From Bacteroidales bacterium (lineage in GTDB: Bacteria; Bacteroidota; Bacteroidia; Bacteroidales; Tenuifilaceae): a stretch of 64,000 bases of DNA. The stretch lies in the NCBI GenBank assembly GCA_046542995.1, contig JBKHAH010000003.1, forward strand, positions 15,566-79,565, given 5' to 3'. Both the position numbers and the translations under genes were made by a program. This document shows, piece after piece, positions 41,612 through 57,703 of the stretch; the stretch's first letter is position 1, and each line of letters starts with the position of its first letter. The notes under the pieces were generated by a model that saw only the letters and a list, made by a program, of their open reading frames with translations, did not search any database and was not told the DNA's origin.

Positions 41612-42508
41612 TTAGTGATGAATGGATAGAAGGAACTGTTGGCTAAGTTCATCAAACTTTTTAACATTCTGGCGTGAAACGGGAATAATGCTACTGCTAT
41701 CTTGAAGCTTAAGATGGTACCCCAGAGAATTACCTTTTTTTGATATTACTTTACCCAAATTTACTATAAAAGCTCTGTGAGTTCTCATAAAGTGAGGAAT
41801 AGAATCAAGCTGCTGTTCAATATCACTAATTGAATTCCTGATTGTTACCTTAAACTCTCTTTCCTGCCTGATGAGATGAAAAATCACATAGTTCCCTTTC
41901 GATTCGGCATAAATAAACTCATTTTTCAGGAAACTCAACTCTTCCTTTTTGGCCTTTGATTTAATCTGAATCAATTTCTCGTTCGTTTCTTTCTGTCTGC
42001 TTTGGCTGTTAACTTTATATTCTTGAAATATTTCCGGGGTAAAAGCAAAGCGTATATTCACTAAGGATGGTATAACCACAGGTACAACACCGATTAGTAC
42101 TGAGCGAATAAAAGAGTCGAGGAAGGTACTCATATTCAAGCGCTCACCTTGATCTTCGATTAGAAACCCAGCAGAATATGCAGAGAGCCCAATACTTGTT
42201 AAAATAATTAAAATTGAGAATAGTTCTTTTGAAACGGTCCAGCGTTTATTTTTTGAGAAGCAGCTTGTCTTTTTTATAATAACAGCCACAATAAATACGC
42301 ATATTGATATTAACAGGCCGTATAATAAAACAGTAAGACTAAAACTGAAGGAGCGAGCCTCGTGTATTTGAAGCGGTTGGTAAGTAATGGCAAATAAGAA
42401 AAGAATGGCAATAAACGCTATTGCGCCCCAGATGGGTTTTTGTATTATAAAATTTTGAGGATACTGTCTGTAGAGTAGTTCTTTTATTTGGTTTATCTGA
42501 TTATTCAT
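41612..42508 (-). CDS. Membrane-anchored LytTR-domain DNA-binding protein
   Basis: Four to five N-terminal TM helices, then the LytTR pattern (FIYAESKGNYVIFHL...RTHRAFIVNL). Confidence 0.8.
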   Translation of the reverse strand: MNNQINQIKELLYRQYPQNFIIQKPIWGAIAFIAILFLFAITYQPLQIHEARSFSFSLTVLLYGLLISICVFIVAVIIKKTSCFSKNKRWTVSKELFSILIILTSIGLSAYSAGFLIEDQGERLNMSTFLDSFIRSVLIGVVPVVIPSLVNIRFAFTPEIFQEYKVNSQSRQKETNEKLIQIKSKAKKEELSFLKNEFIYAESKGNYVIFHLIRQEREFKVTIRNSISDIEQQLDSIPHFMRTHRAFIVNLGKVISKKGNSLGYHLKLQDSSSIIPVSRQNVKKFDELSQQFLLSIHH

Positions 42509-42680: not shown

Positions 42681-43676
42681 TTACTTAATAATTACATCTC
42701 CATTCACAATTTTATCTACCATACTCCTAATCGTGTCCCATCTTTCAGCGTCCATCTTTGGACCAATTACTTCAATTACTTTACCCGATAAGATTGCTCC
42801 AATCTCAGCACATTGCTTTAGGGTTAAATTCTTTGTGAGGCCATATATAAACCCTGCGGCGAAAAGGTCGCCAGCACCTGTTGAGTCAATGGCATTTACG
42901 TTAATAACTCCCATCTTCACAACCTCTTCGCCTGATTTTATTAAAGAACCTTCGGCTCCGATTTTTACAACCGCAATATCAACCATTTTAGAAATCTCTA
43001 CCAATGCCTGCTCCGGAGATTTTCCCGTGAAAGCTTTTGCTTCATCCTCGTTGGCAAATACCACATCTACATATTCGCTAACTATGCGCTTAAGAAATTC
43101 AAGGTTTGCTTCTACCACGTTGTAGCTGGCTAGGTCTAATGATATTTTTAGCCCTGCCTGTTTCGCGGTTTTAATTGATTTCTCAATTAATGCATGGTTT
43201 TGTACCAAGTAGCCTTCAATATGTAAGAAGTTGTAGCCCTGAAATGATGACTCCTCAATGTCTGAGTCAAGCATCTCAATTGCTGCTCCCAGGTTTACAG
43301 CAAAGGTCCGCTCCGAGTCAGTAGAAACCAGTGCAAGCGCTCTCCCCGAAGCTGCTGTTCCAATGAGGAGGCTAGGGCTAATTCCCGTTGTGGTCATGTC
43401 CTTATTAAAAAAGTCGCCCATTTCATCCTTACCAACCTTACCAATAAATCCGGTTACAACACCAAGGTTCGCTAGGCCGTTTATTGTGTTTGCTGCGCTT
43501 CCACCTGAAGCAAGTGTTTGCTTTAGACCTATTGTTTGCTCTATAGCCTTTTCAATGGTTTCGTCGTCAACTATTTGCATGCTGCCTTTAGGGAGGTTAA
43601 GAATCTCAAGCAGGTCATCATTCTCTAAACTGGTCATTATATCAACCAGCGCATTGCCAATACCAATAACTTTCAT
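42681..43676 (-). CDS. PfkB-family kinase, adenosine kinase-like
   Basis: 331 aa. GGSAANT and DSTGAGDLFAAGFIYG ribokinase-family signatures. Confidence 0.8.
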   Translation of the reverse strand: MKVIGIGNALVDIMTSLENDDLLEILNLPKGSMQIVDDETIEKAIEQTIGLKQTLASGGSAANTINGLANLGVVTGFIGKVGKDEMGDFFNKDMTTTGISPSLLIGTAASGRALALVSTDSERTFAVNLGAAIEMLDSDIEESSFQGYNFLHIEGYLVQNHALIEKSIKTAKQAGLKISLDLASYNVVEANLEFLKRIVSEYVDVVFANEDEAKAFTGKSPEQALVEISKMVDIAVVKIGAEGSLIKSGEEVVKMGVINVNAIDSTGAGDLFAAGFIYGLTKNLTLKQCAEIGAILSGKVIEVIGPKMDAERWDTIRSMVDKIVNGDVIIK

Positions 43677-43947: not shown

Positions 43948-43964
43948 GTTAAGTGCGATTTGGC

Positions 43965-44005
43965 ATAAATAAAGGGAAGCATTACCGATGCTTCCCTTTA
44001 TTTAT
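43965..44005. terminator. 18-bp perfect palindrome; terminator for the 11-gene minus-strand operon (bidirectional)
   Basis: ATAAATAAAGGGAAGCAT-taccg-ATGCTTCCCTTTATTTAT, 21 nt downstream of the 44027 stop. Confidence 0.75.
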
Positions 44006-44026
44006 GATTTTTTAAAGTGCAGGTAG

Positions 44027-44464
44027 TTACATTGTATCCACCAATGATAGCAGTCCAACAGCTAAACCTGGTTTCCCATCCCTAAATTTAAAGAATAGGT
44101 GGTATGCCCCTGTTTTTGTGCAAACATAGTCAATGGAAGGGTGGTCTTTTCCTGTGGCAACAATATGGGTGGTTGCTAATAATCTGTTGTTATCAAATAG
44201 TTCAAGAACTACTTTCCCTTCATAATCTTTTGAGTTACAAACAGAGAAGCGATACTTAATCCCCTTTTTAAGAATAACAGAAAATCTTTGCGTGGGAGGA
44301 GGGTCGCCTGCATCTAGTCGAATTGTAAAGTCTTTTAAAAAGGTGGCATCGCCTGCGATCATTCCACAGATTTCAACCAGATCATCTTCCGTTTGTGCGG
44401 ATAGCTTTGTTGAGAACCCCGCAATAAGAACTGATAGTAAAAGAATAAGGCAAGTATTTTTCAT
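44027..44464 (-). CDS. Secreted hypothetical protein (last gene of operon)
   Basis: 145 aa. Signal peptide MKNTCLILLLSVLIAGFSTKLSAQ; beta-rich; no family recognised. Confidence 0.55.
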   Translation of the reverse strand: MKNTCLILLLSVLIAGFSTKLSAQTEDDLVEICGMIAGDATFLKDFTIRLDAGDPPPTQRFSVILKKGIKYRFSVCNSKDYEGKVVLELFDNNRLLATTHIVATGKDHPSIDYVCTKTGAYHLFFKFRDGKPGLAVGLLSLVDTM

Positions 44465-44486
44465 AATTCAAAGTTTTTCTAGAGTT

Positions 44487-45398
44487 TTACCCATTAAGCA
44501 GCTTATTTCTAATTTCCCGTACCTTAATTATGATGCTATTCAAGGTTTCTTCTGACATTTCAATGTTTTGAGTATCCTTTTGTTCAAAGGTGAGCACCCC
44601 ATCTTTAACTACTTGAACAGGATCAGCATACTCATACGTTATCTTTACATCCTTGTATAGGCCCTGAATTTGTTCAAAATCCTTAATTAGATCTGCTATT
44701 TTAGGGTCGCGTTTGTAGTTATCAAGCAAAATCATTAGGTGATTCATAATCATCTTTTGCTCCCCAATGGTTTCGTTAATTCTGGGATGGTTTGCATCTT
44801 GCGCCACCCGGGTAGAAAGGTAGAGCCCTTCAATCCATACCCCAGCAATTATTAGCACGCTAAGGTGTGAACGGTTTGTTTCGCGAAGGTAGCCATCAAT
44901 GCGGTTGAAACTTTGCTGTGAGATAAGCATTAGGGAGTCAAGGTTCTCTCTATTGGTTGCAATTCTACTAAGGGTACTGAAGTCGAAAAATTGACCAACC
45001 TGAATACCATCCGCTAAGGATTTAATTGTTGAAATATAGTTAATAACAAGAGATGTCCTTTCGTACATGTTAATATAACCTAGGTCTGCCCCATAAATTC
45101 CTAGACCAATAGCTTTTTCGAAGTTGGTGTTCAGGTTGTTCTCCTTTTTTGTGCTTGCTAGGTAATCTTTGTTGAAGGGCATGTTAAGACCCTTGATCAT
45201 GGCTGCAGTTTCAACAGGAGAGGATACATTCTGAATCATATCGTCAATAACTTCCGCTGCAATTTCCAGAGGTTGATCATCTAGGAGTTCATCTGGGATG
45301 TCAAATTCTCCGCTAGTTTCGTCCCTGTCCGAGTCAAAAAAACGACACGATGAAACGAGCAGTGTAGTAATGAGGATGAGAGTTGTGATTCTAAGCAT
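44487..45398 (-). CDS. Hypothetical lipoprotein
   Basis: 303 aa. Lipobox LLVSSC; helical body; no family recognised. Confidence 0.55.
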   Translation of the reverse strand: MLRITTLILITTLLVSSCRFFDSDRDETSGEFDIPDELLDDQPLEIAAEVIDDMIQNVSSPVETAAMIKGLNMPFNKDYLASTKKENNLNTNFEKAIGLGIYGADLGYINMYERTSLVINYISTIKSLADGIQVGQFFDFSTLSRIATNRENLDSLMLISQQSFNRIDGYLRETNRSHLSVLIIAGVWIEGLYLSTRVAQDANHPRINETIGEQKMIMNHLMILLDNYKRDPKIADLIKDFEQIQGLYKDVKITYEYADPVQVVKDGVLTFEQKDTQNIEMSEETLNSIIIKVREIRNKLLNG

Positions 45399-45462
45399 AT
45401 TTAAAAACGATTAAATGTAATGTTGTATTATCTCACTCTTCAAAAAGTAAAGATATAAAAAA

Positions 45463-48400
45463 TTATTTTTTTCTGGGTATAGGCACCTTAATTTTACCTA
45501 AAAATTCAATCGACTTTTTAATTACTTCAAAATAAAGCATGAAGTATAGTATGATGCTCATAAACCATATAAAGCAAACATTGAACCAAAATGTGTCGTA
45601 GTAGCTACCCAAAAAGTATTTTCTTGGAGCCAGGAAGTGTGATCTGAAATCGAGTTGATGATTTGGTATAGGATCCCTGTATATGGGATCGTACTGTTGA
45701 ACTAGTTCTCCCTTGTATTGTAGTATCTTGTTTTTTTCAAAAATCTTCATGGCCAAATCGGCTATACTTTCATTGTGGTAAGCTCTACGTTTAGCTTCGT
45801 ACAGTTTAGGATTTGTTTCTACAAGGTGTGTTATTAGCTTGTCGCGTTTACTGTTGGCCGTTTGGAATATTTTATTGTAATGCTCTTTAAGCTGCTGAAG
45901 GTAATCAATAGTGCCAAAGTAAACCTCCTGGTCGAAATCATTCGAATTGAGGTTGTCCATATATCTGTAGGGAATAGCTGGAACCAGATAGTTAGCCTCG
46001 TTAAATAGTGAATTCCTGAGAACTAGAAGGTTCTCCTTAAACTCTTCAGTTGCCTCATCGTTTTGTTCATTGCTATTAATATGTTCGTAGCATTCATCAA
46101 GAATTTTTTCCAACTCTGGAATGTAATATACAGTTTTGTAGTCGGCGTTTCGCTCCACCTTCTCTATATCGTAGAAGGTCTTATGGAAATCGTTATTCTT
46201 AAATTGGTGTACAACTAGCGCCTCATAGCCCCATTTTGTAACCATAAACTCTGCAATTAGTGGCACTCTGCCAAAACTTCCAACGGCGCGGTTTAACTTC
46301 TCAAAGCTAAACATTGCTCCGGAAAGCACCATCATGGGGATCATTAGCAGGGGGATTACAATATATATGGTAACGGCAGAGTTGAATGTTGCAGAAATGT
46401 TTAAGCCTAAAAGATTAGCAAAAACGGCAGTAGAGAAAAGCACCAGCCAGTACTCAAAATTCATACCTCTGAGTTGGAGTATTCCATTGGCAATAAGCAC
46501 AAATGTTATGCACTGGATTGCCGAGAGTACAACCAGAATAAATATCTTGCTAAACAGGTACGATGCGCGGCTCAAGTTTAGGAACGCTTCGCGTTTAAGA
46601 ATTTTCCTGTCGCGGAAAATCTCCTCGGCGCTCACTGTTAATCCAATGAACAGGGCAACAATAAGCGCCATAAATATGTAAATGGGGATATTCTCGTTCT
46701 CCCTAAAAATGTAAACATCAGAATTCGGATCTGCTATATATCGAATAACAAATGCGAGGATGAAACCCAGAATGGGTGTTTCAAGCATGTTAAGTACGAT
46801 ATACTGCGTGTTGCTTACCTTTGAGAGAAAATCGCGGGTGGTATATATGAAGAACTGCTTAAGTTTTGATGGGATATTTAGCGATTTTGGCGGTGGCTCC
46901 GTTTCTCTTGGTACACTTTTCAGCTTAATATTCTCACTAAAATGATCCTCCCATTTGGGGGGGGATATTTTTCGGGTTGGGGTGTAGCGACCAAACTCAT
47001 CCACCACCTTCGCTTCAATGATATTGAATATAAGTTCAGGATTAACATTACCGCAGGTTGGGCATTCCCCCTGATCGCTGTTAATCTGCATGTCGATGCG
47101 CTTAAAGTACATCACCGCTTCAACGGGGTTGCCGTAGTATATCATGTATCCACCCGTATCAAGAATCATCATATTGTCAAACATCTTATATATGTCTGAC
47201 GATGGCTGGTGAATTACTACAAAGATGAGTTTTCCCTTAAGCGTAAGCTCTCGAAGAAGGTCCATCACGTTTTCCGAGTCCCTGGACGATAGGCCAGATG
47301 TTGGTTCATCGACAAAAAGGATGGCGGGTTCGCGAATTAGCTCAAGCGCAATGTTCAGCCTTTTTCTTTGCCCTCCGGAAATCATTTTGTTAAGAGGTGA
47401 GCCTACTTTTAAATTTTTACGTTCGTAGAGACCTAGGTTCTGAAGCGTTTTGTCAACGAGTTGGGTAAGTTCTTCCTCAGATTTATCCTTAAAGCAGAGC
47501 TTGGCATTGTAATAAAGGTTTTGGAATACGGTGAGTTCCTCAATAAGAAGATCGTCCTGAGGTATTACGCCAATAACTCCTTCAAGGTTCTCCTTTTCAT
47601 GATGCAGGTCAATTCCGTTTATGGTAACTTTCCCTGTTGTGGGCACCTCAATGCCTGCCAATACATTTAGTAGGGTGGTTTTTCCTGCACCGCTAGCTCC
47701 CATTATGCCAATGAGCTTGCCTTGCTCCTCGGCAAAGTTGATATTGCGTAAGCCTATGTCGCCACTTTTAAATTTAAACCCAACATCTTCTACCTCGTAC
47801 GATATGCGTATGCTAGTATCGTCGGCAAGGTAATGTGCCACAACATCGGTGTAGTATATGGGTTTACCTTTGGGAAGTTTAATGGAGCTGCCATTGGCAA
47901 ACAGGTATATCCTTTTTTTGTTGATTGGAAGACCATTAAGGAAAATTTCCTCGTTACCGGTGTACCTCAGGAAGTATAGGTCTTCGCTTTTTATCTGAAG
48001 TATGTATAGGTGCCCATCGAGGGCTTCGGTTGGAATGTGCTTGCAATGCTCTCCCTTGTCCTCGTTATCGTGTATGGTAAGTATGCTGGGGTAATCAAGA
48101 TCCTTCGGGTCATTGTTTATGACGAAGTTTTCGATATCGGTAAATTCTTCTTTGGTAAGCTTAAATACGTCGGCCACCGTATTAATAATAGCCATACGTT
48201 GCTCGGTGAATTTTCTATCGGCATTAACCAGCTCAAAGAGGCGAACCAGTACAACAACCTTCTGTTTCTGGGTTAGGGTTTTGTTAATTTTTTTGCATAT
48301 ACCCAAAATCTTAACTGAGTCTTTAACCGAGGTTAGCTTGACCTTTTTAGGCTTCCCATCCGCCTCCCCGTTTTCTTTATCCTGTTTTAGCCCGGCATGC

Positions 48401-48558
48401 TGGTCAAAAAGATCAATATATTCTCCAACAGCCTCATCGTTAACCTGCTGCAACAAGAAGTTGACAACGTACTCGCGTTCGTTGGACTCAACACCTTCGT
48501 CCTGCTTTGCAATAATTGCAAAGAGCTGCATTAAAGCCTTGAGAATTTCTTCACTCAT
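45463..48558 (-). CDS. ABC transporter, fused ATPase + ABC-2 permease (ABCG-like order) with TerB-like N-terminal region and an unassigned beta-rich linker
   Basis: 1031 aa. Walker A GASGAGKTT, signature ISGGQRKR, Walker B ILFVDEPTSGL, then about 6 TM helices. N-terminal FAIIAKQDEGVESNEREYVVNFL resembles TerB-type helical repeats. Confidence 0.85.
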   Translation of the reverse strand: MSEEILKALMQLFAIIAKQDEGVESNEREYVVNFLLQQVNDEAVGEYIDLFDQHAGLKQDKENGEADGKPKKVKLTSVKDSVKILGICKKINKTLTQKQKVVVLVRLFELVNADRKFTEQRMAIINTVADVFKLTKEEFTDIENFVINNDPKDLDYPSILTIHDNEDKGEHCKHIPTEALDGHLYILQIKSEDLYFLRYTGNEEIFLNGLPINKKRIYLFANGSSIKLPKGKPIYYTDVVAHYLADDTSIRISYEVEDVGFKFKSGDIGLRNINFAEEQGKLIGIMGASGAGKTTLLNVLAGIEVPTTGKVTINGIDLHHEKENLEGVIGVIPQDDLLIEELTVFQNLYYNAKLCFKDKSEEELTQLVDKTLQNLGLYERKNLKVGSPLNKMISGGQRKRLNIALELIREPAILFVDEPTSGLSSRDSENVMDLLRELTLKGKLIFVVIHQPSSDIYKMFDNMMILDTGGYMIYYGNPVEAVMYFKRIDMQINSDQGECPTCGNVNPELIFNIIEAKVVDEFGRYTPTRKISPPKWEDHFSENIKLKSVPRETEPPPKSLNIPSKLKQFFIYTTRDFLSKVSNTQYIVLNMLETPILGFILAFVIRYIADPNSDVYIFRENENIPIYIFMALIVALFIGLTVSAEEIFRDRKILKREAFLNLSRASYLFSKIFILVVLSAIQCITFVLIANGILQLRGMNFEYWLVLFSTAVFANLLGLNISATFNSAVTIYIVIPLLMIPMMVLSGAMFSFEKLNRAVGSFGRVPLIAEFMVTKWGYEALVVHQFKNNDFHKTFYDIEKVERNADYKTVYYIPELEKILDECYEHINSNEQNDEATEEFKENLLVLRNSLFNEANYLVPAIPYRYMDNLNSNDFDQEVYFGTIDYLQQLKEHYNKIFQTANSKRDKLITHLVETNPKLYEAKRRAYHNESIADLAMKIFEKNKILQYKGELVQQYDPIYRDPIPNHQLDFRSHFLAPRKYFLGSYYDTFWFNVCFIWFMSIILYFMLYFEVIKKSIEFLGKIKVPIPRKK

Positions 48559-48600
48559 TGCTTAGGTTAACTTGTTAAAGTTGGAGTAGCATTATTTCTC

Positions 48601-48984
48601 TTAACTAAGAGTATAGCTTATCTGCTCAAAAGGAACATCAACAATATCTGCATACTCTTCACCGGCCTCCTGCATATCTTCGTCATCCTCAGGGTAGTAC
48701 CAGTTAATCAGAACTTCCTTCCCATCCTCATGCATCTCTTCGAGCTTCATAAGAATATCCAGGAGTAGCTTTGAACTGGCAGTATTAAAGTACACCAGCT
48801 TAAATGAGAAGATGGTTTTTGCATTTGGGCTTGCAGCGTACTCATCGAGCCAGTTTAGTATTGGGTCGTAAAAAGCCGTGACATCCTCCGGTAACGAACG
48901 ACCAGATATTTCGAAAATGTCATTCTCTGCATCCAAAATTACGGTTGGGGTATCGTCAGTACCCAAAATCTTTATGGTCTCCAT
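48601..48984 (-). CDS. SiaC-like regulatory phosphoprotein (DUF1987)
   Basis: 127 aa. ILGTDDTPTVILDAENDIFEISGRSLPED...FYDPILNWLDEY and YFNT(68)ASSK match the DUF1987/SiaC pattern. Confidence 0.8.
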   Translation of the reverse strand: METIKILGTDDTPTVILDAENDIFEISGRSLPEDVTAFYDPILNWLDEYAASPNAKTIFSFKLVYFNTASSKLLLDILMKLEEMHEDGKEVLINWYYPEDDEDMQEAGEEYADIVDVPFEQISYTLS

Positions 48985-48995
48985 AAGTCAATTGT

Positions 48996-49571
48996 TTACT
49001 CGTTTCTGGTGATTGTAGATGTTAAAATAAAAAAGTGTGTCTCCTCGTCAATAGGCAGGAAGTGGTATTCCAGGTTTCGACCGGTTTTTCTGGCAATATC
49101 GATAAAGCCTAAACCTGCGCCTCCTTTCTCCGAGAGCCTTCCTTCTCTCATTTGCGTTTTGTAAAGCTCCTTAAGCCCATTTTTATCAAGGGTATTAATG
49201 TGATCGAGGATTTTTGTGAGCTCCTCAATCTTGGAGTTTTCAATTACGTTGCCCGTGGTAACGTGATACTCAATTTCGCCCTTGCTCACCATGAATATCC
49301 CTCGGCCTGCAAACAGGAAGTCGTCTGACCCGAAGCTGTCGGCATGCTTACTGATGTTCTGAAGGCACTCTACCATAACATGGAATACCTTCTTTTGCAC
49401 CTGGTTCGACTCCTCCTCTTTTGCCATATTGGACTCCGTGAGGGAAGTGAAGGCCTTGGTGATTTGATGGGTAATCTCACCCTCATACACCAGAGTGATT
49501 TCATGAGCTTTCATCGACTTGTAAAAGTCGTAAACAAACTCAAGAAAACCTTTAACATTTCTTTTATCCAT
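48996..49571 (-). CDS. SiaB-like Ser/Thr protein kinase (GHKL/anti-sigma-kinase fold)
   Basis: 191 aa. C-terminal G-box GGAGLGFIDIARKTG. 11 nt upstream of the DUF1987 gene and 38 nt downstream of the PP2C gene. Confidence 0.7.
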   Translation of the reverse strand: MDKRNVKGFLEFVYDFYKSMKAHEITLVYEGEITHQITKAFTSLTESNMAKEEESNQVQKKVFHVMVECLQNISKHADSFGSDDFLFAGRGIFMVSKGEIEYHVTTGNVIENSKIEELTKILDHINTLDKNGLKELYKTQMREGRLSEKGGAGLGFIDIARKTGRNLEYHFLPIDEETHFFILTSTITRNE

Positions 49572-49609
49572 AGCCTGTAAAATTAAATAATTTACCGATA
49601 ATAAACAAT

Positions 49610-52246
49610 TTAGAATTCAATTCCTATAGTGAGAACATCGTCAATCTGCTTGTTATCTCCCATGTACTCTTCAAAGTCTTTAGAAAATAAATCGTTAAAT
49701 TTTGGCATTGTTAGTTCCTGATTCTCTACTATTAGCTCTCTGATGCGTACTGGTCTGTATTTTCTCTTGTCTTCACCTCCAATTTGGTCGGGCATGCCAT
49801 CGGAGAAGAAGAATATCTTATCGCCCTGCTTAATATCAATCTGGTAGTTGGTGAAATCTTTCTCTGGCTTTTTGGGATGTGGTATTCCACCTATGGCTTT
49901 CCTGTCGCCCTTGTACTCGTGTAGTTCCTTGTCTCTAAGCAGGTAAAGCGGCCTGTGAGCCCCAGAATACTGCAGTTCCTTCTTTTTTAGGTTAATTTTA
50001 CAGAGTGCAATATCCATGCCATCGCGAGCATCGGCATCTATCCGATCTTGCTTTAGCGTTTTTCTTACGTTATGATGGAGTTCATCAAGTATCTTCGATG
50101 CGGAGTAGCTAACATCGTGGTCAACTACGTTGTTTAGAATGAAGTAGCCTATAAACGATAGCAGTGCGCCAGGAACACCGTGGCCTGTACAGTCAACTGC
50201 TGCAATATATACATAGTCTTCCTTAACGAAGAACCATGGGAAATCTCCACTTACTACATCTCTTGGTTTGTAGTATATGAATGATTTGGGCAGGTACTGG
50301 CGAATAGTTCTGTTGTTAGGTAGAATTGAGGTTTGGATACGCTGCGCGTAGTTGATACTTTCGGTAATTTTTCGGTTCTTATCCTGAATCTCCTGCTCAA
50401 TTCTTTTTGCATCGGTAATATCATGACCAACAAAAAGTATGGTCTCCAGTTCGTTTTCGTTAAACTCAGGTATGGCAGATATATGCATTATCGTGTCGCC
50501 AACTTTTGAGGAGAAGGTAAGATCATCTTCAACATTGCTCTTACTGGTTTTAATGCTTTTTATGGTTTCTTTAAGGAACGATGCCAGAACTTCGTTCAGT
50601 TCAACCGAGTTTAGCGTTTGGTTAATTAGCTCCTTAACTGGTATGCCAAGATACTTCTCAACCATTGGGTTTGCATAAAAGAACTGACCGCTGGTGTTGA
50701 GGCGCATAATCATATCGGGTGAGTTCTCTGATAGTGCCTGCATCTTACTACGCATACGCTCTTCCTTCTCAGCTCTCTTGCGCTCCGTAATATCTTGTGA
50801 GTTAAGAATAATCCCATTTATTGCAGGGTCATCAAGTAGGTTGCGCCCTGTTACCTCAAGAAACAGCTTGGTACCATCCTTCTTCATAAAGGTGTACTGG
50901 ATGGTAATGGGTATTCTGGGCGAGTCGAGCAGTTTTTGGAACATGCCGTTAAGTTCCTGCTCTCCTTTGCGGGTAAGACGATCAATATCTTTTCCGCTCA
51001 TCATCTCATCGGGTGTGTATCCGAGTATTTTAGTTACCGATGGGCTTATGTAGGTTAATTTAAGGCTGCTGCTATATATTGAAATAATTTCAGATGCGTT
51101 TTCAAGCAGTGAATGGATTCGTTTCTGGGCATTTTCAACCTCCTGAATTTTTGATTCCAGCTGAATGTTTGATTTTTCAAGCTCTTCGTGTGTGGCCCTC
51201 ATCTCCTCAGCATTCTGCCTTAGCTCCTCCTCGTTCTCTTTTAGTTCCTGAGTCATTTGCTGAGCTTCATGAAGGAGCTGCTCAGTTTTTTGATTTATGC
51301 GGAGGTTAAATATGGTGCGAGCAATAATCTCGCCCATTTCTCTTAGGAAACGAATGGTTAGCTCTGGTATACTATCTTCAAGCGAGGCAAACTCAATTAC
51401 ACCTTGCAGCTTCTCATCGGTAATGAGTGGTACTATTAGTAGGGTCTTGGGTTTTTTATCGCCAAGTATTCCTGATGTGATGGAAACATAGTCCTCGGGA
51501 ATTTCTGTGCGGTACACAATATCCCTTTCGTAGGCGCATTGGCCTATTAAGCCTTGCCCAATCTTAAACTCTTGATTTATATACTTCTTTCGATTGTATG
51601 CGTAGGTTGCGAGGTTGGTTAGTTTCTCCTTGTCGTCATCATAAATGTATAGGGCTCCTTGTATAATGTTGATGTAGTTTATAAGCTTAACAAGCACTTC
51701 GTAGGATAGTTCTCCAATATTGTTGTGCAGTCGTAGTATGTATGAAACTTCATCTTTCCCTTTTGTAATCCAGCTTTGTTCAGACTCTTTCTTGTTGTTT
51801 TCTAGGAGGTTGTCGCGCATTACAAGTAGCGATTTACCCAGAATATCGTCTTCGTCGCTTATTTGAAAAGGAGCGTTGTAGTTGCCTTCGCCAATTGTTT
51901 TTGCGAAAAGGGCATTCTTGTTAATATCCTGATCTCTTTGGGTTATTTCATCCTCAAGAAACGACACCTTCTCTTGATGCTTTTTAAGGCTTAAATATGT
52001 GATGTAACCAAAAAGAATGGGGAGTATGTCAATAATCCATAAGGCCGGGTTGGTTACGTGGAGCTTTGCTACTCCGGAAATGGATAATGCAATTCCATGC
52101 GCAGAGAGTTCCAGTGCCCATGCAATAATAACTATTAGCAAACCAACCGTAGCGGCTATAATAACCTTCTGGGTTACGGCCTTGTTGATTATATCCGGTG
52201 ATGTTTTACTATGGGTTATCATACTATTCCTTTGTACTGTTGCCAA
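49610..52246 (-). CDS. Membrane-anchored GAF - coiled coil - PAS - PAS - PP2C (SpoIIE-type) protein phosphatase (SiaA-analogous)
   Basis: 878 aa. Two N-terminal TM helices. GAF with ITSGILGDKKPKTLLIVPL. Two PAS blocks. C-terminal PP2C motifs VSGDF, VDCTGHGVPGALLS, DGMDIAL, FSDGMPDQ, DDVLTIGIEF. An alternative start MITHSK at 52222 would leave 1 nt after the upstream stop. Confidence 0.85.
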   Translation of the reverse strand: MATVQRNSMITHSKTSPDIINKAVTQKVIIAATVGLLIVIIAWALELSAHGIALSISGVAKLHVTNPALWIIDILPILFGYITYLSLKKHQEKVSFLEDEITQRDQDINKNALFAKTIGEGNYNAPFQISDEDDILGKSLLVMRDNLLENNKKESEQSWITKGKDEVSYILRLHNNIGELSYEVLVKLINYINIIQGALYIYDDDKEKLTNLATYAYNRKKYINQEFKIGQGLIGQCAYERDIVYRTEIPEDYVSITSGILGDKKPKTLLIVPLITDEKLQGVIEFASLEDSIPELTIRFLREMGEIIARTIFNLRINQKTEQLLHEAQQMTQELKENEEELRQNAEEMRATHEELEKSNIQLESKIQEVENAQKRIHSLLENASEIISIYSSSLKLTYISPSVTKILGYTPDEMMSGKDIDRLTRKGEQELNGMFQKLLDSPRIPITIQYTFMKKDGTKLFLEVTGRNLLDDPAINGIILNSQDITERKRAEKEERMRSKMQALSENSPDMIMRLNTSGQFFYANPMVEKYLGIPVKELINQTLNSVELNEVLASFLKETIKSIKTSKSNVEDDLTFSSKVGDTIMHISAIPEFNENELETILFVGHDITDAKRIEQEIQDKNRKITESINYAQRIQTSILPNNRTIRQYLPKSFIYYKPRDVVSGDFPWFFVKEDYVYIAAVDCTGHGVPGALLSFIGYFILNNVVDHDVSYSASKILDELHHNVRKTLKQDRIDADARDGMDIALCKINLKKKELQYSGAHRPLYLLRDKELHEYKGDRKAIGGIPHPKKPEKDFTNYQIDIKQGDKIFFFSDGMPDQIGGEDKRKYRPVRIRELIVENQELTMPKFNDLFSKDFEEYMGDNKQIDDVLTIGIEF

Positions 52247-53027
52247 TTGTTAAAAGATGTTCTGTGAAAAACTGACCCAATGCCTCAAATACTTTTACGT
52301 TGTCCTTCTCAAAGGGTTTAAACGATGCCAATTCTAGTACGCCTTCACACTCGTTGCTGGAGTTTAAAAAAGGTACCAGAAGAAGATGATTGGGTGACCC
52401 TTCTCCAAGACCTGAAACTATGGTTATGTAGTCATCAGGGACATCAGAGAGATTTAGGGTTGTCTTATTTTTTGCTACCTGTCCAGGAAGAGTTTCTCCT
52501 TCAGCAAAGTTTTTTGGTGTTTCTTCGGAAAAGAAAGCGTATGACGCTAAGAAGGAGAATTCTGAATTGTTGGGTTCTTTTTTAAAGAATACGCCCTGAA
52601 CTATATCGTGTTCTTTTGCAATATTGGAGAGCATTTTTTCTGTAAAGACCTCAAGGTCTTCAAAATCATCTGATGGGATTAACTTTTCTGCCTCTGCCTT
52701 GTAATTAATCTCCTGTTTTGTAGAATCTTTTTTCTTCTCACCGTTTTTAGTATCCTGTTTTTTCTGATTCTCTTGAATGCTCTTTTTTAGCTGCTCAAGC
52801 TGCTGCTTGTTACTATTTGAAGCATTAATGGCTGTTATAATGATTTGAAAAAAAAGTATGCCAATAGCAGCAGATGCAACTAGCAAAATGATAGCCAAAA
52901 CTGGTATTTTTGTTTGGTACTGTGCCAGTTGATTTTGTAGGCTAAAAAAAACACCTGATACGCTTATAATCAGCAGAACCAAAAGGATGCCGTAACTAAG
53001 TCTGGAATTGTTGGAGAAGAATCTCAT
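52224..53027 (-). CDS. Membrane-anchored GAF-only protein
   Basis: 267 aa. Two TM helices, K/Q/E linker, and a GAF paralogous to the two flanking sensors (VPDDYITIVSGLGEGSPNHLLLVPF...GVLELASF). Confidence 0.7.
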   Translation of the reverse strand: MRFFSNNSRLSYGILLVLLIISVSGVFFSLQNQLAQYQTKIPVLAIILLVASAAIGILFFQIIITAINASNSNKQQLEQLKKSIQENQKKQDTKNGEKKKDSTKQEINYKAEAEKLIPSDDFEDLEVFTEKMLSNIAKEHDIVQGVFFKKEPNNSEFSFLASYAFFSEETPKNFAEGETLPGQVAKNKTTLNLSDVPDDYITIVSGLGEGSPNHLLLVPFLNSSNECEGVLELASFKPFEKDNVKVFEALGQFFTEHLLTIGNSTKE

Positions 53028-53039
53028 AAGGCACCAAAT

Positions 53040-53606
53040 TTATTGATTTTGTTTTATGCTTTGAAGAAAACGAATAATTTCATCGGTTTTATATACGTAA
53101 TCAACCTTAGTAAGTTTAAGCGATGATTCTGTCATGGTCTTTACCTGACATTCACTAGGATCCTGAACAATGGTTTTTCCGTTGTAATCTTTTATTCTCT
53201 TTAACCCATAAGCTCCATCTTTATTAGCTCCAGATAAAATAATGCCAATGAGTTTTTCACGGTAAACCTGAGCGGCAGTTGTAAAAGCTAAATCAATTGA
53301 TGGCCTGGAATGGTTAACTGGCGGCTCGGTTGAGAGCGCTATCTTGTTTCCAAGCTCAATAAACATATGATAGTTTGCTGGAGCAAGGTATGCTTTGCCT
53401 GGTTTTATCTGGTCTTTATCATAAGGTTCAATTACGGGTATGGCTGATTTAATTGAAAGCGCCTCTACAAATCCGCTTCTAACATGTTTTAACCTATGAA
53501 GGTTAAGAAGCACAGGTAGTGGAAAGTTCTTTGGCAAAGAACTAAGTATTCTGGTAATTACTTGAAAACTACCAGCCGAACCACCTATTATAACCGCTTT
53601 ATACAT
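53040..53606 (-). CDS. cheB: CheB-type protein-glutamate methylesterase/glutaminase, catalytic domain only (no receiver domain)
   Basis: Ser (IIGGSAGS), His (LNLHRLKH) and Asp (LSGANKDGA) triad contexts present. Start set at MYKAVIIGG; longest ORF reaches 53651 and overlaps cheR. Confidence 0.85.
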   Translation of the reverse strand: MYKAVIIGGSAGSFQVITRILSSLPKNFPLPVLLNLHRLKHVRSGFVEALSIKSAIPVIEPYDKDQIKPGKAYLAPANYHMFIELGNKIALSTEPPVNHSRPSIDLAFTTAAQVYREKLIGIILSGANKDGAYGLKRIKDYNGKTIVQDPSECQVKTMTESSLKLTKVDYVYKTDEIIRFLQSIKQNQ

Positions 53607-53613
53607 TATCTGA

Positions 53614-54444
53614 TTAACCTGTTTTTTTCTTGTAAATTTTTTCACCGTCATTTACTACGGTAAACTTATCGCTACAATTTGTGTTTTCTAAAGTCTCTTT
53701 GGCTCCCAGTACCATAAAACCTCCTGGCGATAAACTCTCGTGAACTGATTTAATGGCTTTATCTTGTAATATAGTATTAAAATAAATAATTTGATTTCTG
53801 AACAGTGCAAGTTTTATGCTTGATGGGGCGTTGTTGTAAAGCGTATCTTGCTTAATAAATTTCACATCTTTTATAAGATCCTTGTCTAATATAATGAATC
53901 CATTATCATCGTATGAGTAGTAATTAGAATATTTGCCTTCACACTTGGTTCTGTCATAGTTGGCTTCGTTTACCTCAAGTTGCCTTGCATCAATTTTGCC
54001 CTCCTGTATTTTCTTAATTGTTTCGTCGCTAAAAACAGAAACAAAGATACTAAAGTGTTCGAGTAAATTCATCTCTTTGAGAAGAATGCATAACGAGAAG
54101 AGCTCTTCGCCTGAATCGAAGGAGGCTACCCAAATTTTTGGTTTAGAGGTGCTTTTGCTTATTATTGGTATAATATCATCATATAAGGCACGCCAGAGCG
54201 ATGGGTCTCGGAACATTTCTGTGGTTTCAGGGGTAATGTCCTTGAGAAACTGCTCAAAGAATGATTTGTTGCTTTGTAACCTTGAGATAAGAACTTCGGA
54301 GTCTTTAAGACCATTTTTAGTTATTATATCCTCAAGCCTACGTTTAAAAGAGGTGAGCGCATAGTCTCTAAAGTCATAGCCGTATGTTTCCAGCAATGCT
54401 TTTATAATGTTCCTTGTTTCTACTATGCCAATTTCGTAACCCAT
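53614..54444 (-). CDS. CheR-like methyltransferase, divergent paralog
   Basis: CheR_N region and TEMFRD motif present. The SAM-binding motif reads IWVASFDSGEE instead of the canonical IWSAGCSTGEE. Confidence 0.8.
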   Translation of the reverse strand: MGYEIGIVETRNIIKALLETYGYDFRDYALTSFKRRLEDIITKNGLKDSEVLISRLQSNKSFFEQFLKDITPETTEMFRDPSLWRALYDDIIPIISKSTSKPKIWVASFDSGEELFSLCILLKEMNLLEHFSIFVSVFSDETIKKIQEGKIDARQLEVNEANYDRTKCEGKYSNYYSYDDNGFIILDKDLIKDVKFIKQDTLYNNAPSSIKLALFRNQIIYFNTILQDKAIKSVHESLSPGGFMVLGAKETLENTNCSDKFTVVNDGEKIYKKKTG

Positions 54445-54458
54445 GTTAATTATAAGGC

Positions 54459-56840
54459 TTATTTGTTTTTACGCAGTTGATTCATTAACTCGTCAATCTG
54501 CTTTTGTAGCATTAGCTCCTTCTCTTTGCTTTCAGTTATGTTTATACCTAGGTTGATTATTTTAACAACCTTTCCTGATTTATCACGTATTGGCGTGTAT
54601 TGTTCCGATATCCATACAGTTTTGCCTTTTACGTTTAGGGAGAAGTCTCTTTTTTCAATATTGCCTTCCAGAATGCTGTTCCAGAATTTTTTATACTTTT
54701 CAGGTTTTGTTTTTGCTTCAAAATCAAGTTCATGATGCAGCTTCCCTTCAATCTTGTCTTTGCTATCGCCCAGAGTTTCTACGTTCTTATTGTTTATGAA
54801 TAGTATTTCTCCTTCTGGGCTTATTTCAGTAACAAGGCATGTATTATCAAGGGCCTGAAGTAGCGCGGCGATTTCCTCTTCTTGTTGTTTTGTGATTTTT
54901 TGCTCTTCTTGGAGTTTAATTAAATTCTGCTCTATCTCTTCGGCTTGCTGCCTCGCTTTAAGCTCAATATTTTTGGAGTCTGTTATGTCCTGTCCGAGAT
55001 AGAATATTTTGTAAAGCTCGTTATTTTCATCAAAGGCTGGTGTAATGCTTGCCAGGGTATAAAACTCCTCGTTATATTTATTCAGCCATTTTAATGTACC
55101 CTTAAACGTTTCTCCTTTGGTAATCGTGTTCCAGGCCTCATTGAATGTTGTAGTATCATCAGGATGAATAAACTCTTTTATTGTTAGCTCTTCAATACTG
55201 TCCTTAGTGTGTCCAAATTTTTCAAGGAAGTTTAGGTTTGCAAACTGGAAGTTGCCCGATTCAGAGAGTTCACAGAAAAGGAGTGCTTCGTTAATTGCAG
55301 AAGTAATGCCCTCCATTTCAATTGTCTTACGTGCCATCTCTTCCTGTGTAGCTTGCATCTCTTCCATGTTTTGCCTCATCTCCTCTTCTTGTGCCGCCAT
55401 CTCTTCTCTTTGTTGTTGCGATTGCTCAAGAAGTTGTGTTGTACGAATGCTGTTTTTAACCGCTGATAACGTTGAGGCTATGTTTTCACCAATCTTTTCA
55501 ACAAATTCAATTTCATGTTGAGAGAGGTTGTTGAAGGATGCTAATTCGATTACACCAAAAACTTTTTCTTCCAACTTTAGAGGAACTATCAGCAGGGTGC
55601 GAGGAGGAGCTTCTCCTAACCCGGATGTTATTTCAATATAATCTTCAGGAATTTCTTTTAGGTAAATGGTTTGCTTCTCAACAGCACAATTACCAACAAG
55701 CCCTTCGCCAAACAGAATTGTTTTTTTCTTTGATTTTTTCCGGTTGTATGCAAAGGTTGATAGAAGTTCGAGTTCGTGTTCGTTATCTTCGTTTTCATTA
55801 ACGATAAACAGTCCGCCTTGGTTCGCATTAAGGTAGTTGACCAGTTCCTGAGTTACATTATCCGACAGGGCTTCAAGCTCATCATTATTTTGCCTTAAAA
55901 TGTCGCCAAATTTTGCCAGGCCGGAGTTTACCCAGTTTCTGCGTTGGTCCTCCTGCTTGCGTTCTTGCTCTTCCAACGAGGCTTTCTTCAGATTAGCTCG
56001 CATGCTTAATAATGAGTTTCCTAAAGCATCATTTGGCCCTAAAGGAGCATATTCAGTATTGAGGTTATTTTGCCCAATCTGCGTGGCAAATTCCGCTGTT
56101 CTGCTCAACCCCGCAATAAGCTTGTTAAGGGATGAGGCTATTTGCCCTACCTCATCGTTCGTACTATGTTGTATTTTTTGGGGAGTGTCCCCTTCTGCCA
56201 TTCTTGTGAGGCTCGAATTAATTTTTGAAATGGTTTTTATAACGGGGCGAAGTGCGTAATTAATTGCAATGGCAGACAAAGTTATACCAGCAAAAATTAT
56301 TAACAATAAAATTATTCTATTAGTCTTTAGGTCCTCTGTTATTTCCGAGAAGTTAACCGGGATTGCAATAAATGCATCATAAGAGTCTATCTTTTTAAAA
56401 TAAACAATAATTTTGTGTCTTTCATTCCTAACCTCCTGATAATATTCGAAAAACCCTTCTTTGTTTGGGTCAGCAAACACTCTGTTTAACCTTTCGGTTG
56501 GGTACTTTTGACCCTCACGGTATAAATGGATTAGGTAGTTACCCTCTTTACTTACCAGAAACGGGTAATCAGTTGAATAAAAGGCGGGCTTATTGAAGTA
56601 ATTCTTAAGCTGAGCATAGTCTTGATGCGAGAAGCCGTCAGGAGTTTGCTTGTCAATTTCAGTAATAATATCTGAAATCTTTTGCAAATAAACCTCCATT
56701 TGCGTTTGCGTGGTATTGAGCAAGCGTTTTAGGCTGAAACTATAAACCGTGAAAGCAGCCGCGCTAAATAAGAGCACGAGAAGCGTAGTTACTACAAGTA
56801 GTATTCTGTGCTTTATTTTAATGTTATTTAAAAACTTCAT
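54459..56840 (-). CDS. Sensor protein: TM - Cache-like periplasmic domain - TM - HAMP - GAF - coiled coil - PAS - coiled coil - PAS, no recognisable output domain
   Basis: 793 aa. HAMP (LRPVIKTISKINSSLTRMAEGD...NDEVGQIASSLNKLIAGL), GAF (ITSGLGEAPPRTLLIVPL), two PAS blocks. Ends without a kinase, phosphatase, GGDEF or MCP-signalling domain. Confidence 0.8.
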   Translation of the reverse strand: MKFLNNIKIKHRILLVVTTLLVLLFSAAAFTVYSFSLKRLLNTTQTQMEVYLQKISDIITEIDKQTPDGFSHQDYAQLKNYFNKPAFYSTDYPFLVSKEGNYLIHLYREGQKYPTERLNRVFADPNKEGFFEYYQEVRNERHKIIVYFKKIDSYDAFIAIPVNFSEITEDLKTNRIILLLIIFAGITLSAIAINYALRPVIKTISKINSSLTRMAEGDTPQKIQHSTNDEVGQIASSLNKLIAGLSRTAEFATQIGQNNLNTEYAPLGPNDALGNSLLSMRANLKKASLEEQERKQEDQRRNWVNSGLAKFGDILRQNNDELEALSDNVTQELVNYLNANQGGLFIVNENEDNEHELELLSTFAYNRKKSKKKTILFGEGLVGNCAVEKQTIYLKEIPEDYIEITSGLGEAPPRTLLIVPLKLEEKVFGVIELASFNNLSQHEIEFVEKIGENIASTLSAVKNSIRTTQLLEQSQQQREEMAAQEEEMRQNMEEMQATQEEMARKTIEMEGITSAINEALLFCELSESGNFQFANLNFLEKFGHTKDSIEELTIKEFIHPDDTTTFNEAWNTITKGETFKGTLKWLNKYNEEFYTLASITPAFDENNELYKIFYLGQDITDSKNIELKARQQAEEIEQNLIKLQEEQKITKQQEEEIAALLQALDNTCLVTEISPEGEILFINNKNVETLGDSKDKIEGKLHHELDFEAKTKPEKYKKFWNSILEGNIEKRDFSLNVKGKTVWISEQYTPIRDKSGKVVKIINLGINITESKEKELMLQKQIDELMNQLRKNK

Positions 56841-56863
56841 GGTTTTTATTATAACTTGCTATA

Positions 56864-57703
56864 TTACTTTTTAATGTACGATTGCCCCATCTTTTCAAAT
56901 TTATTTGCCCATGGACCAAGGATGGTTTCATGCATGCCTAAGAGCAAAATGCCTTTTGTGTAAAGGTTTGAATGAAACAGGTCAAAAACTTTATTCTGTA
57001 ATGAGTAGTTAAAGTAAATAATCACATTCCTGCATAAAATCAGGTCAAACTTTGCAAAAAACAGGTTGCCATCCTTTACCAAATCGTGCTTTCTGAAAAT
57101 AGGCTTTTCAGTTAAAAAGCGTTTCATGGTAATGGTATCCTTTGATTTATCGATGTCAAAATATGTTTCGTAGGGAACATCGTTAAATTCTTCGTAATTA
57201 AGGGGGTTCTGCTTAATTACTTTATCAAAATTATCAAGATATCCAATGTTAAAACGATATTTGAACTCGCCTTTCTTTGCGGCCTCCAGAACGTCGGTGT
57301 TTAAATCGGAGGCAAATACCTTGGCCTTTTCAAACAGCCCCATCTCATTTAGAAGAATCATCATGGAATAAACCTCCTGCCCTGTTGAGCAGCCAGCATG
57401 CCATATGTTTATGTTCTTGTTGTTTTTAAACCTTGGGAGTATCCGTGATTTAAGCATATGCCATACTTGTGGATCGCGGAAAAGCTCAGTTGTATTAACG
57501 GTAATCTCTTTTACAATGCTTTCTGTAAAGATGGGGTTTGTTTTCATTGATGATATAAGACCAGCTATATCAAGGTTGAAGTCCGTGAGAACTTTCTGCA
57601 ACCTGCGCTTCAAGGACTTATCTGAATACTCGCTAAAATCGTATTTTGATGAGTTCTTTAAAGCAGATACAAAATACTGTAGATCCTGATCTGATATCAC
57701 CAT
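56864..57703 (-). CDS. cheR: CheR protein-glutamate O-methyltransferase (canonical motifs)
   Basis: 279 aa. TELFRDPQVW, INIWHAGCSTGQEVYSMMILL, LILCRNVIIYF. Confidence 0.9.
   Translation of the reverse strand: MVISDQDLQYFVSALKNSSKYDFSEYSDKSLKRRLQKVLTDFNLDIAGLISSMKTNPIFTESIVKEITVNTTELFRDPQVWHMLKSRILPRFKNNKNINIWHAGCSTGQEVYSMMILLNEMGLFEKAKVFASDLNTDVLEAAKKGEFKYRFNIGYLDNFDKVIKQNPLNYEEFNDVPYETYFDIDKSKDTITMKRFLTEKPIFRKHDLVKDGNLFFAKFDLILCRNVIIYFNYSLQNKVFDLFHSNLYTKGILLLGMHETILGPWANKFEKMGQSYIKK

Follow-up and report, generated by a model that had tools for sequence, protein, structure and literature searches.

A stretch of 64,000 nucleotides (nt) from a Bacteroidales bacterium of the Tenuifilaceae (assembly GCA_046542995.1, contig JBKHAH010000003.1, positions 15,566 to 79,565 of the forward strand; hereafter the window) carries on its minus strand, at 44027-57703, a cluster of eleven co-directional open reading frames (ORFs) that we hold with high confidence to be one functional unit. 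The cluster is a signalling-plus-effector cassette, widespread in Bacteroidota, in which genes for CheR- and CheB-type enzymes stand beside a SiaABC-type Ser/Thr partner switch and an ABC exporter. In the window the order is CheR1, sensor, CheR2, CheB, GAFm, SiaA-like PP2C phosphatase, SiaB, SiaC, ABC exporter, lipoprotein X and protein Y, with intergenic gaps of -23 to +64 nt. An earlier interpretation made from the letters of the DNA (the sequence-only reading) had described eleven minus-strand genes with these gaps and had named their domains; the ORFs are indeed present at those positions, and Pfam and NCBIfam hidden Markov models run on all eleven proteins gave scores in agreement with the assignments, SiaB, SiaC, CheR and CheB included, none of them being rejected.

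Conservation of the cluster

A scan anchored on the window CheB, with one genome taken per species, recovered at least 496 relatives, of which the best 80 loci were analysed. All of these 80 come from Bacteroidales or from Bacteroidota metagenome-assembled genomes, and the proteins of Tenuifilaceae and other Bacteroidales share 72-90% identity with the window CheB. The window proteins were matched to the ORFs of the 80 loci and gene order was compared by script: all ten core genes were found in 57 of the best 80 loci, in identical order in 54 of the 57, and the incomplete loci were mostly ended by contig edges. The Bacteroidales order is CheR1-[sensor or nothing]-CheR2-CheB-GAFm-PP2C-SiaB-SiaC-ABC-X-Y, and the cultured Tenuifilum thalassicum carries the full 11-gene version.

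A second lineage was reached through a homologue of the exporter head in Fulvivirga maritima (Cytophagales), whose cluster has a single canonical CheR and reads sensor-CheR-CheB-GAFm-PP2C (1214 amino acids, aa)-SiaB-SiaC-ABC-X-Y. A metagenome scan anchored on the F. maritima CheB yielded 80 further loci; in this set the one-CheR order runs through 39/39 contigs of more than 9 kb, over the part of the cluster that each contig covers. CheB identity across the compared lineages is only 55-62%, and the cluster is kept in well over a hundred Bacteroidota genomes. Flanking genes change from lineage to lineage and the cluster order does not; because the order is constant while the flanks differ, we regard the cluster as a selected unit in at least two classes of Bacteroidota. 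The sequence-only reading had held that the gene order must recur in other genomes, and the complete Bacteroidales loci together with the second lineage bear this out.

A hairpin that follows the last gene, between the end of the operon and a same-strand pfkB-family kinase gene (42681-43676), is a probable operon terminator, and inside 44027-57703 there is no minus-strand hairpin of comparable strength. A scan for sigma-70 promoters returned 33 sites against 36.5 expected and was uninformative. With respect to gene starts, homologues (184-190 aa) suggest that CheB begins at 53606, not 53651 (186-188 aa), and the PP2C gene may begin at 52222.

A partner switch of the SiaABC type

The phosphatase matches SpoIIE at 69.6 bits, and its C-terminal 260 aa score 171.7 bits against the SiaA model NF038263; this is short of the 700 bits of the equivalog cut-off, a consequence of the different N-terminal architecture. 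Against the SiaA-PP2C structure 6K4E the PP2C domain aligns at E=4.5e-36, and the Asp motifs that bind metal are preserved. The SiaB protein exceeds the cut-off of 85 bits for the family model NF038262 (SiaB_fam_kinase), matches DUF6272 at 149 bits and aligns with Pseudomonas aeruginosa SiaB (6KKO_A) at E=3.5e-13; its identity across 72 orthologues is 0.83, and its score of 88.5 bits against the equivalog model NF038264 lies below the required 225. SiaC aligns over its full length with P. aeruginosa SiaC (6KKO_C; E=2.5e-16), and the Thr of its FNTAS segment, invariant in 70 orthologues, is aligned to the Thr of YLNTSS, the reported T68 phosphosite. The sequence-only reading had pointed out that SiaD is missing, in keeping with which no GGDEF domain was found in the window and no R.GG[DE]EF motif in 1.59 Mb of related loci. 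With scores under the equivalog cut-offs and no SiaD, the window proteins are best classed from these comparisons as family relatives, not orthologues, of SiaABCD.

Methylation enzymes without a nearby chemotaxis pathway

The S-adenosylmethionine (SAM)-binding motif of CheR1, WHAGCSTGQEVYS, is invariant in 72 orthologues, and the mean identity to the window residue is 0.73. CheR2 evolves much faster (mean identity 0.48). At motif I it shows the looser pattern W-x-[PA]-x-x-x-S-G-E-E-L-[YF]-S and has lost the Gly-Cys, which Salmonella CheR is not known to have either; its FRD and RN..IYF motifs are retained. A reading of CheR2 as a dead enzyme was considered and, in view of the retained motifs and of the Salmonella case, not adopted, although its catalytic activity is uncertain. 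The second CheR has no counterpart in the Cytophagales-type cluster and is a Bacteroidales addition.

Alignment of CheB shows no variation in the motifs that bear Ser (GGSAGS), His (LHRLKH) and Asp (SGANxDG), and the catalytic domain stands alone, with no receiver, both in the window protein and in 82/82 orthologues (184-203 aa). Because it is without a receiver domain, this CheB should not be controllable by CheA. Judged by conserved motifs and scores, CheR1, CheB, PP2C, SiaB and SiaC all look active.

The partners with which CheR and CheB normally operate were absent wherever we looked for them. A domain search of the other window ORFs of at least 120 aa, which are housekeeping or unrelated genes, found no CheA, CheW, CheY or other receiver, methyl-accepting chemotaxis protein (MCP) or GGDEF domain, so that the earlier statement that the window has no CheA, CheW, CheY or MCP domain holds. 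Crude motif scans of the 1.59 Mb of related loci found no Che or MCP motifs, the MCP hairpin included, and the +/-10 kb neighbourhoods of these loci contain no CheA or CheW. Within the cluster, Pfam and NCBIfam gave no HisKA, HATPase_c, Response_reg or sigma factor, and neither the sensor nor the phosphatase matches PF00015 (MCPsignal) at E<=0.01. The Tenuifilum literature that we searched contains nothing on motility or che genes. With no MCP domain, no nearby CheA or CheW and no CheB receiver, the cluster falls outside the Che pathway class.

A candidate methyl-acceptor helix in sensor and phosphatase

The sensor has a HAMP-GAF-PAS-PAS architecture, no output domain, and a weak Cache match, at 23.4 bits below the cut-off of 27.7. 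The slot that it fills between the two cheR genes is empty in 20/71 Bacteroidales loci, and the sensors found in the slot elsewhere vary in length (620-915 aa) and in their N-terminal sensor parts. The Cache-HAMP-GAF-PAS sensor of the sequence-only reading is therefore present in the window but does not belong to the core, and on account of the empty slots we rejected the slot sensor as an obligatory methyl-acceptor. The constant candidate acceptor is the phosphatase, with the sensor an additional candidate. The N-terminus of the phosphatase comprises two predicted membrane helices and a HAMP-like segment, followed by a GAF domain.

In both proteins GAF is directly followed by a segment that is predicted to form a coiled coil and has Glu-Glu pairs at heptad spacing (the EE helix). 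The two helices (aa ~472-508 of the sensor; aa ~333-361 of the phosphatase) align without gaps and share the near-invariant motif EEELRQN[AM]EEMxATQEE, which includes an MCP-like EE-x-x-A-T. The motif is present in 72/73 Bacteroidales and 36/37 Cytophagales-type orthologues of the phosphatase, in 55/55 Bacteroidales slot sensors from the 80 loci, whose N-termini are divergent, and in 25/28 Cytophagales-type adjacent sensors. The EE helix is also the top-conserved segment of each protein (0.83 vs 0.73 overall for the phosphatase, 0.69 vs 0.50 for the sensor). The pattern [EQ][EQ]xxA[ST], which matches the consensus of MCP methylation sites, occurs once in the sensor (aa 493) and once in the phosphatase and is absent from the other nine proteins of the cluster; among the sensor-type proteins of the window, it is found in the 793-aa sensor only. 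In the register that places the invariant L/M at position d and M/A at position a, the EE pairs fall at the exposed b/c positions.

Because the EE helix is conserved, is present in both candidates and occupies the same post-HAMP-GAF place as the helix of the Bacillus kinase RsbK discussed below, it is likely to be the methyl-acceptor. Which glutamates would be methylated, and what this would do to the phosphatase, we infer, as we do the target of SiaC and the exported substrate, whereas domain identities, catalytic motifs, the conserved Thr of SiaC, the EE motif, synteny and the fold of the exporter head are observations. Our guess is that a sensor with no output domain might pass on its signal as a heterodimer with the phosphatase, joined by their homologous helices and PAS domains.

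GAFm adjoins this system in every locus. Its match to GAF_2 is below the cut-off, its GAF domain is of the same ITSGLG subtype, its membrane helices are read from the sequence, and it evolves fast (0.32 identity). A heptad EE run was found in 0/79 GAFm sequences.

The exporter, lipoprotein X and protein Y

The exporter consists of a TerB-like bundle (aa 1-155), an FHA-like beta domain (aa ~158-245), an ABC ATPase, an ABC-2 membrane domain and a C-terminal extension. An AlphaFold2 model of aa 1-255, built on a 50-sequence alignment, has a predicted local distance difference test score (pLDDT) of 85.7 and a predicted template modelling score of 0.82, and a Foldseek comparison with the PDB returned FHA domains (Mek1, Rad53 FHA1, CEP170) as top matches at probability 1.00. 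These matches have target TM-scores of 0.44-0.47 over 73-82 aligned columns and weak E-values of 0.02-0.08, figures obtained with a two-domain query. Sequence comparison of the exporter head gave no Pfam FHA match even at E<=1, and a sequence-profile search of the PDB was likewise empty; in a manual alignment, the residues Ser191, Thr200, Gly201, Asn208 and Gly209 are conserved, but the position after the conserved Gly, at which Arg would be expected, is variable. The label FHA-like is used here for the modelled fold, with no claim of phosphothreonine binding.

The exporter gene comes directly after siaC in all complete loci of the two lineages (>90 loci), with a gap of 42 nt in the window, and thus holds the gene position of Pseudomonas siaD. 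The most likely partner of SiaC, as we infer it, is the cytoplasmic TerB/FHA-like head of the exporter, which is a reasonable choice because DUF1987 proteins have been proposed, in the work on the SiaC-SiaD structure, to modulate the proteins adjacent to them (PMC8457831) and because Rv1747 provides a case of regulation of an FHA-bearing exporter (PMC3138270). On the model, the FHA-like head is a plausible docking site for SiaC.

Lipoprotein X has a lipobox-type Cys18 that is invariant in 25 orthologues, and its gene always follows that of the exporter. It has no Pfam or NCBIfam match, and a PDB profile search gave nothing significant; a single-sequence AlphaFold2 model (pLDDT 46.6) was not used. 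Protein Y, whose gene is always last in the cluster, has no family match; C33 and C76 are invariant, and C115 is present in at least 90% of sequences.

The exporter trio is a separable module. At locus L087 (10001-14518), from a Bacteroidota genome whose assembly looks frameshifted, the TerB-ABC exporter, X (again following the exporter) and Y occur with no CheR, CheB, PP2C, SiaB or SiaC within 10 kb. Genes for LytTR proteins flank this che-less trio (6430-7185, 16870-17736), and in the window a membrane protein with a C-terminal LytTR DNA-binding domain and no receiver is encoded two genes downstream of the operon (41612-42508, minus strand). These neighbours may owe their place to chance, or may regulate the exporter as a second input.

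A wider family of EE-helix proteins

A profile of the two window helices was compared with 1.84 billion representative proteins (clusters at 50% identity) and matched 3,228 proteins at E<=1e-3, 717 of them at E<=1e-10. The motif occurs up to nine times per protein, at a spacing of ~160 aa that corresponds to helix-plus-PAS units. Among the best 150 of these matches, 131 have the same GAF subtype, 8 have PP2C, and CheR and CheB domains occur in none. When 46 of the 150 were scanned with Pfam, PAS was found in 44, GAF in 41 and SpoIIE in 1, and HisKA, HATPase_c, GGDEF and MCPsignal were not among the 25 commonest families in these 46. By these domain counts, the bulk of the family appears, like the window sensor, to have no recognisable output domain. 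Used as a homology query, a 40-aa consensus of the helix brought 16 candidates, all short fragments that carry no taxonomic information.

Three genes with the motif were located in genomes, and all are orphans with no che or sia neighbours: an 839-aa GAF-(helix-PAS)x4 protein with no output domain, encoded in F. maritima 1.5 Mb from the cluster (L085, 8001-10520), and two large PAS-PP2C proteins (L088, 658-3873; L089, 9001-14025). Such genes fit dispersed receptors served by one CheR/CheB pair, and fit a structural connector equally well. A 66-aa metagenome fragment (P0394), which is little beyond the EE helix, bears the JGI label 'methyl-accepting chemotaxis protein', a measure of the MCP-like look of the motif to automatic annotation. 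There are also CheB-CheR-PAS-kinase fusion proteins with 'NEEL' repeats, to which the EE motif may conceivably be linked; none of the best 150 motif-bearing proteins has a CheR or CheB domain.

Proposed mechanism and its alternatives

In the mechanism that we propose, the membrane-anchored SiaA-like PP2C would sense through its membrane/HAMP-like, GAF and PAS parts, with further input contributed by the accessory sensor where one is present. The dimeric GAF-to-PAS signalling helix would offer three to five heptad-spaced Glu-Glu pairs at solvent-facing b/c positions, one of them within EE-x-x-A-T; CheR would add methyl groups to these glutamates and the receiver-less CheB would strip them, and the methylation level would shift the helix, in one direction or the other, and thereby set or adapt phosphatase output, in parallel to the action of RsbM on RsbK. 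The phosphatase would oppose the SiaB kinase at the conserved Thr of SiaC. Free SiaC would then bind its partner, most likely the exporter head, and this binding would switch the export of an envelope or extracellular product that is made or handled with lipoprotein X and protein Y. The flow of the sequence-only reading, from sensing through a methylation-tuned PP2C to SiaC and possibly the exporter, fits these findings, with the amendment that the sensor is accessory. The whole chain, from methylation through phosphatase and SiaC to exporter, we consider somewhat more probable than its failure.

A number of points weigh against this chain. Since MCPsignal matches neither protein, the EE site is not a homologue of the helices that are methylated in MCPs. 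The motif also recurs within single proteins, in as many as nine copies, and turns up in orphan genes at a distance from any cheR or cheB; it could be a purely structural connector from GAF to PAS or from PAS to PAS, and its co-occurrence with CheR/CheB in a genome was observed for Fulvivirga only. The chain assigns no role to CheR2 or GAFm. As CheB would receive no feedback from CheA, the system may keep a fixed set-point and need not truly adapt. On the output side, the FHA-like domain appears to lack the canonical phosphothreonine-binding Arg, the position after the conserved Gly being variable in the manual alignment, and in Pseudomonas the form of SiaC that binds its target is the unphosphorylated one. 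The occurrence of the ABC-X-Y trio with no che or sia genes in L087 means that the exporter is not strictly dependent on the switch.

The apparent lack of the Arg and the separate trio are the points from which one would argue that the Che/Sia module works as proposed and that SiaC acts on an unlinked enzyme or transcription factor, with ABC-X-Y as cargo or an independent neighbour. The constancy with which the exporter follows siaC, in more than 90 complete loci of both lineages, and the fact that Pseudomonas SiaC targets the product of the next gene make this unlikely, though it deserves to be kept in mind. A related question is whether the cassette is real and the acceptor is another of its products, be it GAFm, SiaC, SiaB or the acidic TerB head or linker of the exporter, or else dispersed proteins. 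The EE helix was chosen as substrate by sequence, GAFm always adjoins cheB, and the exporter head has a Glu/Asp/Lys-rich disordered linker (aa 61-74) that might serve; GAFm, however, is poorly conserved and has no heptad EE run, the exporter linker varies in length and sequence, [EQ][EQ]xxA[ST] is confined to sensor and phosphatase, and the sole experimental precedent is a post-GAF helix. We accordingly rate a different acceptor as distinctly unlikely.

More conventional explanations fare worse. CheR and CheB score as ordinary catalytic domains and could in principle serve chemoreceptors encoded elsewhere, with a SiaABC-like operon that is merely adjacent. Against this stand the absence of a CheB receiver in every orthologue, the strictly kept synteny between Che and Sia genes in two classes of Bacteroidota and the absence of MCP, CheA and CheW from the window and from ~1.6 Mb of neighbourhoods; to our knowledge, moreover, Bacteroidota are not flagellated and are usually without CheA-based pathways. 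We regard such a role as very improbable. Equally improbable, in our judgement, is a purely historical adjacency in which the Che-like, Sia-like and exporter modules are independent and exchange no signal. The modules do exist apart, as SiaABC in Pseudomonas, ABC-X-Y in L087 and orphan motif-bearing PP2C proteins, but order and tight spacing are retained while the flanks change and CheB identity falls as low as 55-62%, and the EE-helix motif ties the Che-adjacent sensor to the Sia phosphatase.

A more speculative extension of the proposed chain is a Bacteroidota-wide, CheA-free sensory pathway, in which dispersed GAF/PAS receptors and motif-bearing PP2C proteins would share a single CheR/CheB pair, feed SiaB/SiaC and gate the FHA-headed exporter. 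The receptors of such a pathway would carry one to nine copies of EEELRQNMEELxATQEE, would number ~3,200 clusters and would have no output domain. We put this forward tentatively and think it doubtful.

Relation to known systems

Of the systems to which the cluster can be compared, the closest for the switch is SiaABCD of P. aeruginosa, in which unphosphorylated SiaC binds its target, the diguanylate cyclase SiaD, encoded next to siaC (PMC7647112, PMC8457831). The two have in common a membrane-anchored PP2C, a SiaB kinase, a DUF1987/SiaC protein with the same Thr, the same gene order and an effector beside siaC. They differ in that the window cluster has an ABC exporter in place of SiaD/GGDEF, that its phosphatase carries GAF, PAS and an EE-rich helix, and that CheR, CheB and GAFm are added.

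For the methylation step, the relevant system is that of Bacillus cereus, where the CheR-type RsbM methylates the signalling helix that follows HAMP-GAF in RsbK (CHASE3-HAMP-GAF-S-helix-HK), thereby controlling the receiver-PP2C protein RsbY and RsbV/RsbW/sigma B (PMC4574943). The window, too, has a CheR-type gene beside a HAMP-GAF-signalling-helix protein. RsbK, however, is a hybrid histidine kinase acting on a separate receiver-PP2C protein, whereas the window helix lies within the PP2C polypeptide; RsbM has no partner esterase, whereas the window cluster always has CheB, which would make methylation reversible; and the window switch is SiaC/SiaB, not STAS/anti-sigma, with an output that is probably an exporter, not a sigma factor.

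The MCP-CheR-CheB-CheA/CheW systems share with the cluster the CheR and CheB domains and the heptad Glu/Gln pairs on a coiled coil beside a HAMP-type input, and there may be a further likeness in the many dispersed receptor-like proteins with one acceptor motif. The window differs from them in having no MCP domain, no nearby CheA, CheW or CheY and no CheB receiver, in an output that goes via Ser/Thr phosphorylation and in an acceptor that is probably a parallel signalling helix, not an antiparallel four-helix bundle. Finally, Rv1747 of Mycobacterium tuberculosis is an FHA-bearing ABC exporter regulated by Ser/Thr phosphorylation (PMC3138270). Like the window exporter, it joins an ABC ATPase and an ABC-2 domain behind a cytoplasmic FHA fold, with Ser/Thr phospho-signalling genes adjacent; the window exporter differs in having one FHA-like domain, apparently without the canonical Arg, after a TerB-like bundle, and neighbours that form a SiaB/SiaC/PP2C switch, not a Hanks-type kinase.

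In the literature that we searched there was no description of this cluster, nor of DUF1987 together with CheR, and what we found on the DUF1987/DUF6272/SiaB-SiaC family concerned Pseudomonas only. The novelty claim of the sequence-only reading, which was aware of no described system coupling CheR/CheB chemistry to a Ser/Thr partner switch, was nevertheless too strong in view of the RsbK/RsbM precedent (PMC4574943); that system has no CheB, acts via a histidine kinase and ends in a sigma factor. The cluster thus combines known ideas, namely the SiaABC switch, helix methylation of the RsbM/RsbK type and an FHA-headed ABC exporter under Ser/Thr signalling. New are an esterase that is never missing, the placing of an acceptor-like helix within the phosphatase itself, the occupation of the effector position by an exporter and the breadth of the motif family.

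Features of the cluster and of the window

The coordinates of the cluster features are collected in Table 1. Elsewhere in the window, a 198-aa ORF at 6789-7385 (plus strand) with NUMOD4 and HNH_3 domains of homing-endonuclease type lies between genes for a UDP-GlcNAc 2-epimerase and a Na+/H+ exchanger and may be a mobile insertion. At 26000-29424 (plus strand), three consecutive genes encode a radical SAM/SPASM enzyme, a protein of beta-lactamase fold and a 390-aa product that matches no Pfam family; together they may be a peptide-modification set. At 30880-33729 (minus strand), a gene for a 949-aa protein with TPR and CHAT (caspase-like protease) domains is placed between tsf and pyrH in an otherwise classical rpsB-tsf-pyrH-frr row.

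Table 1. Predicted features of the cluster, in positions of the window
Feature	Position	Strand	Domains, scores or motif
CheR1, canonical CheR-type SAM-dependent glutamate methyltransferase, 279 aa	56864..57703	-	Pfam CheR (PF01739) 128.5 bits + CheR_N
Accessory membrane sensor, 793 aa	54459..56840	-	weak Cache, HAMP, GAF, EE helix, PAS, PAS
Signalling-helix motif of the sensor, aa 472-508	55317..55427	-	five heptad-spaced EE/EQ pairs
CheR2, divergent CheR paralogue, 276 aa	53614..54444	-	Pfam CheR 73.5 bits
CheB methylesterase/deamidase, catalytic domain only, about 188 aa	53040..53606	-	CheB_methylest (PF01339) 165.6 bits
GAFm, two predicted N-terminal membrane helices and C-terminal GAF, 267 aa	52224..53027	-	GAF_2 23.9 bits
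SiaA-like phosphatase, 878 aa	49610..52246	-	membrane helices, HAMP-like, GAF, EE helix, PAS, PAS, PP2C/SpoIIE
Signalling-helix motif of the phosphatase, aa 333-361	51164..51250	-	EEMRAT fits [EQ][EQ]xxA[ST]
SiaB-family protein kinase, 191 aa	48996..49571	-	NF038262 176.6 bits
SiaC-family phosphoprotein, switch protein, 127 aa	48601..48984	-	Pfam SiaC (PF09345) 147.3 bits
ABC exporter, 1031 aa	45463..48558	-	TerB + ABC_tran + ABC2_membrane
Conserved lipoprotein X, 303 aa	44487..45398	-	signal sequence, invariant Cys18
Small secreted-type protein Y, 145 aa	44027..44464	-	signal-like N-terminus, conserved cysteines
Hairpin, perfect 20-bp stem, 21 nt past the last gene	43964..44006		probable operon terminator

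Implications

CheR/CheB chemistry is regarded as the defining mark of chemosensory arrays based on CheA. In this cluster it is hard-wired, across well over a hundred genomes of a phylum not known to be flagellated, to a Ser/Thr partner switch and an exporter, from which it would also follow that SiaC-type switches can drive outputs besides cyclic di-GMP synthesis. The presence of the cluster in the cultured strains Tenuifilum thalassicum (CP041345) and Fulvivirga maritima (CP089980) places it within reach of study in culturable organisms. Should the EE helix prove to be the acceptor, signalling helices in general, beyond those of MCPs or one Bacillus kinase, would be open to tuning by reversible glutamate methylation, and a function would be available for thousands of output-less GAF/PAS proteins of the Bacteroidota. 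If the Bacteroidota-wide pathway exists as sketched above, these bacteria would possess an adaptation-capable receptor network built on a phosphatase core instead of a histidine kinase.

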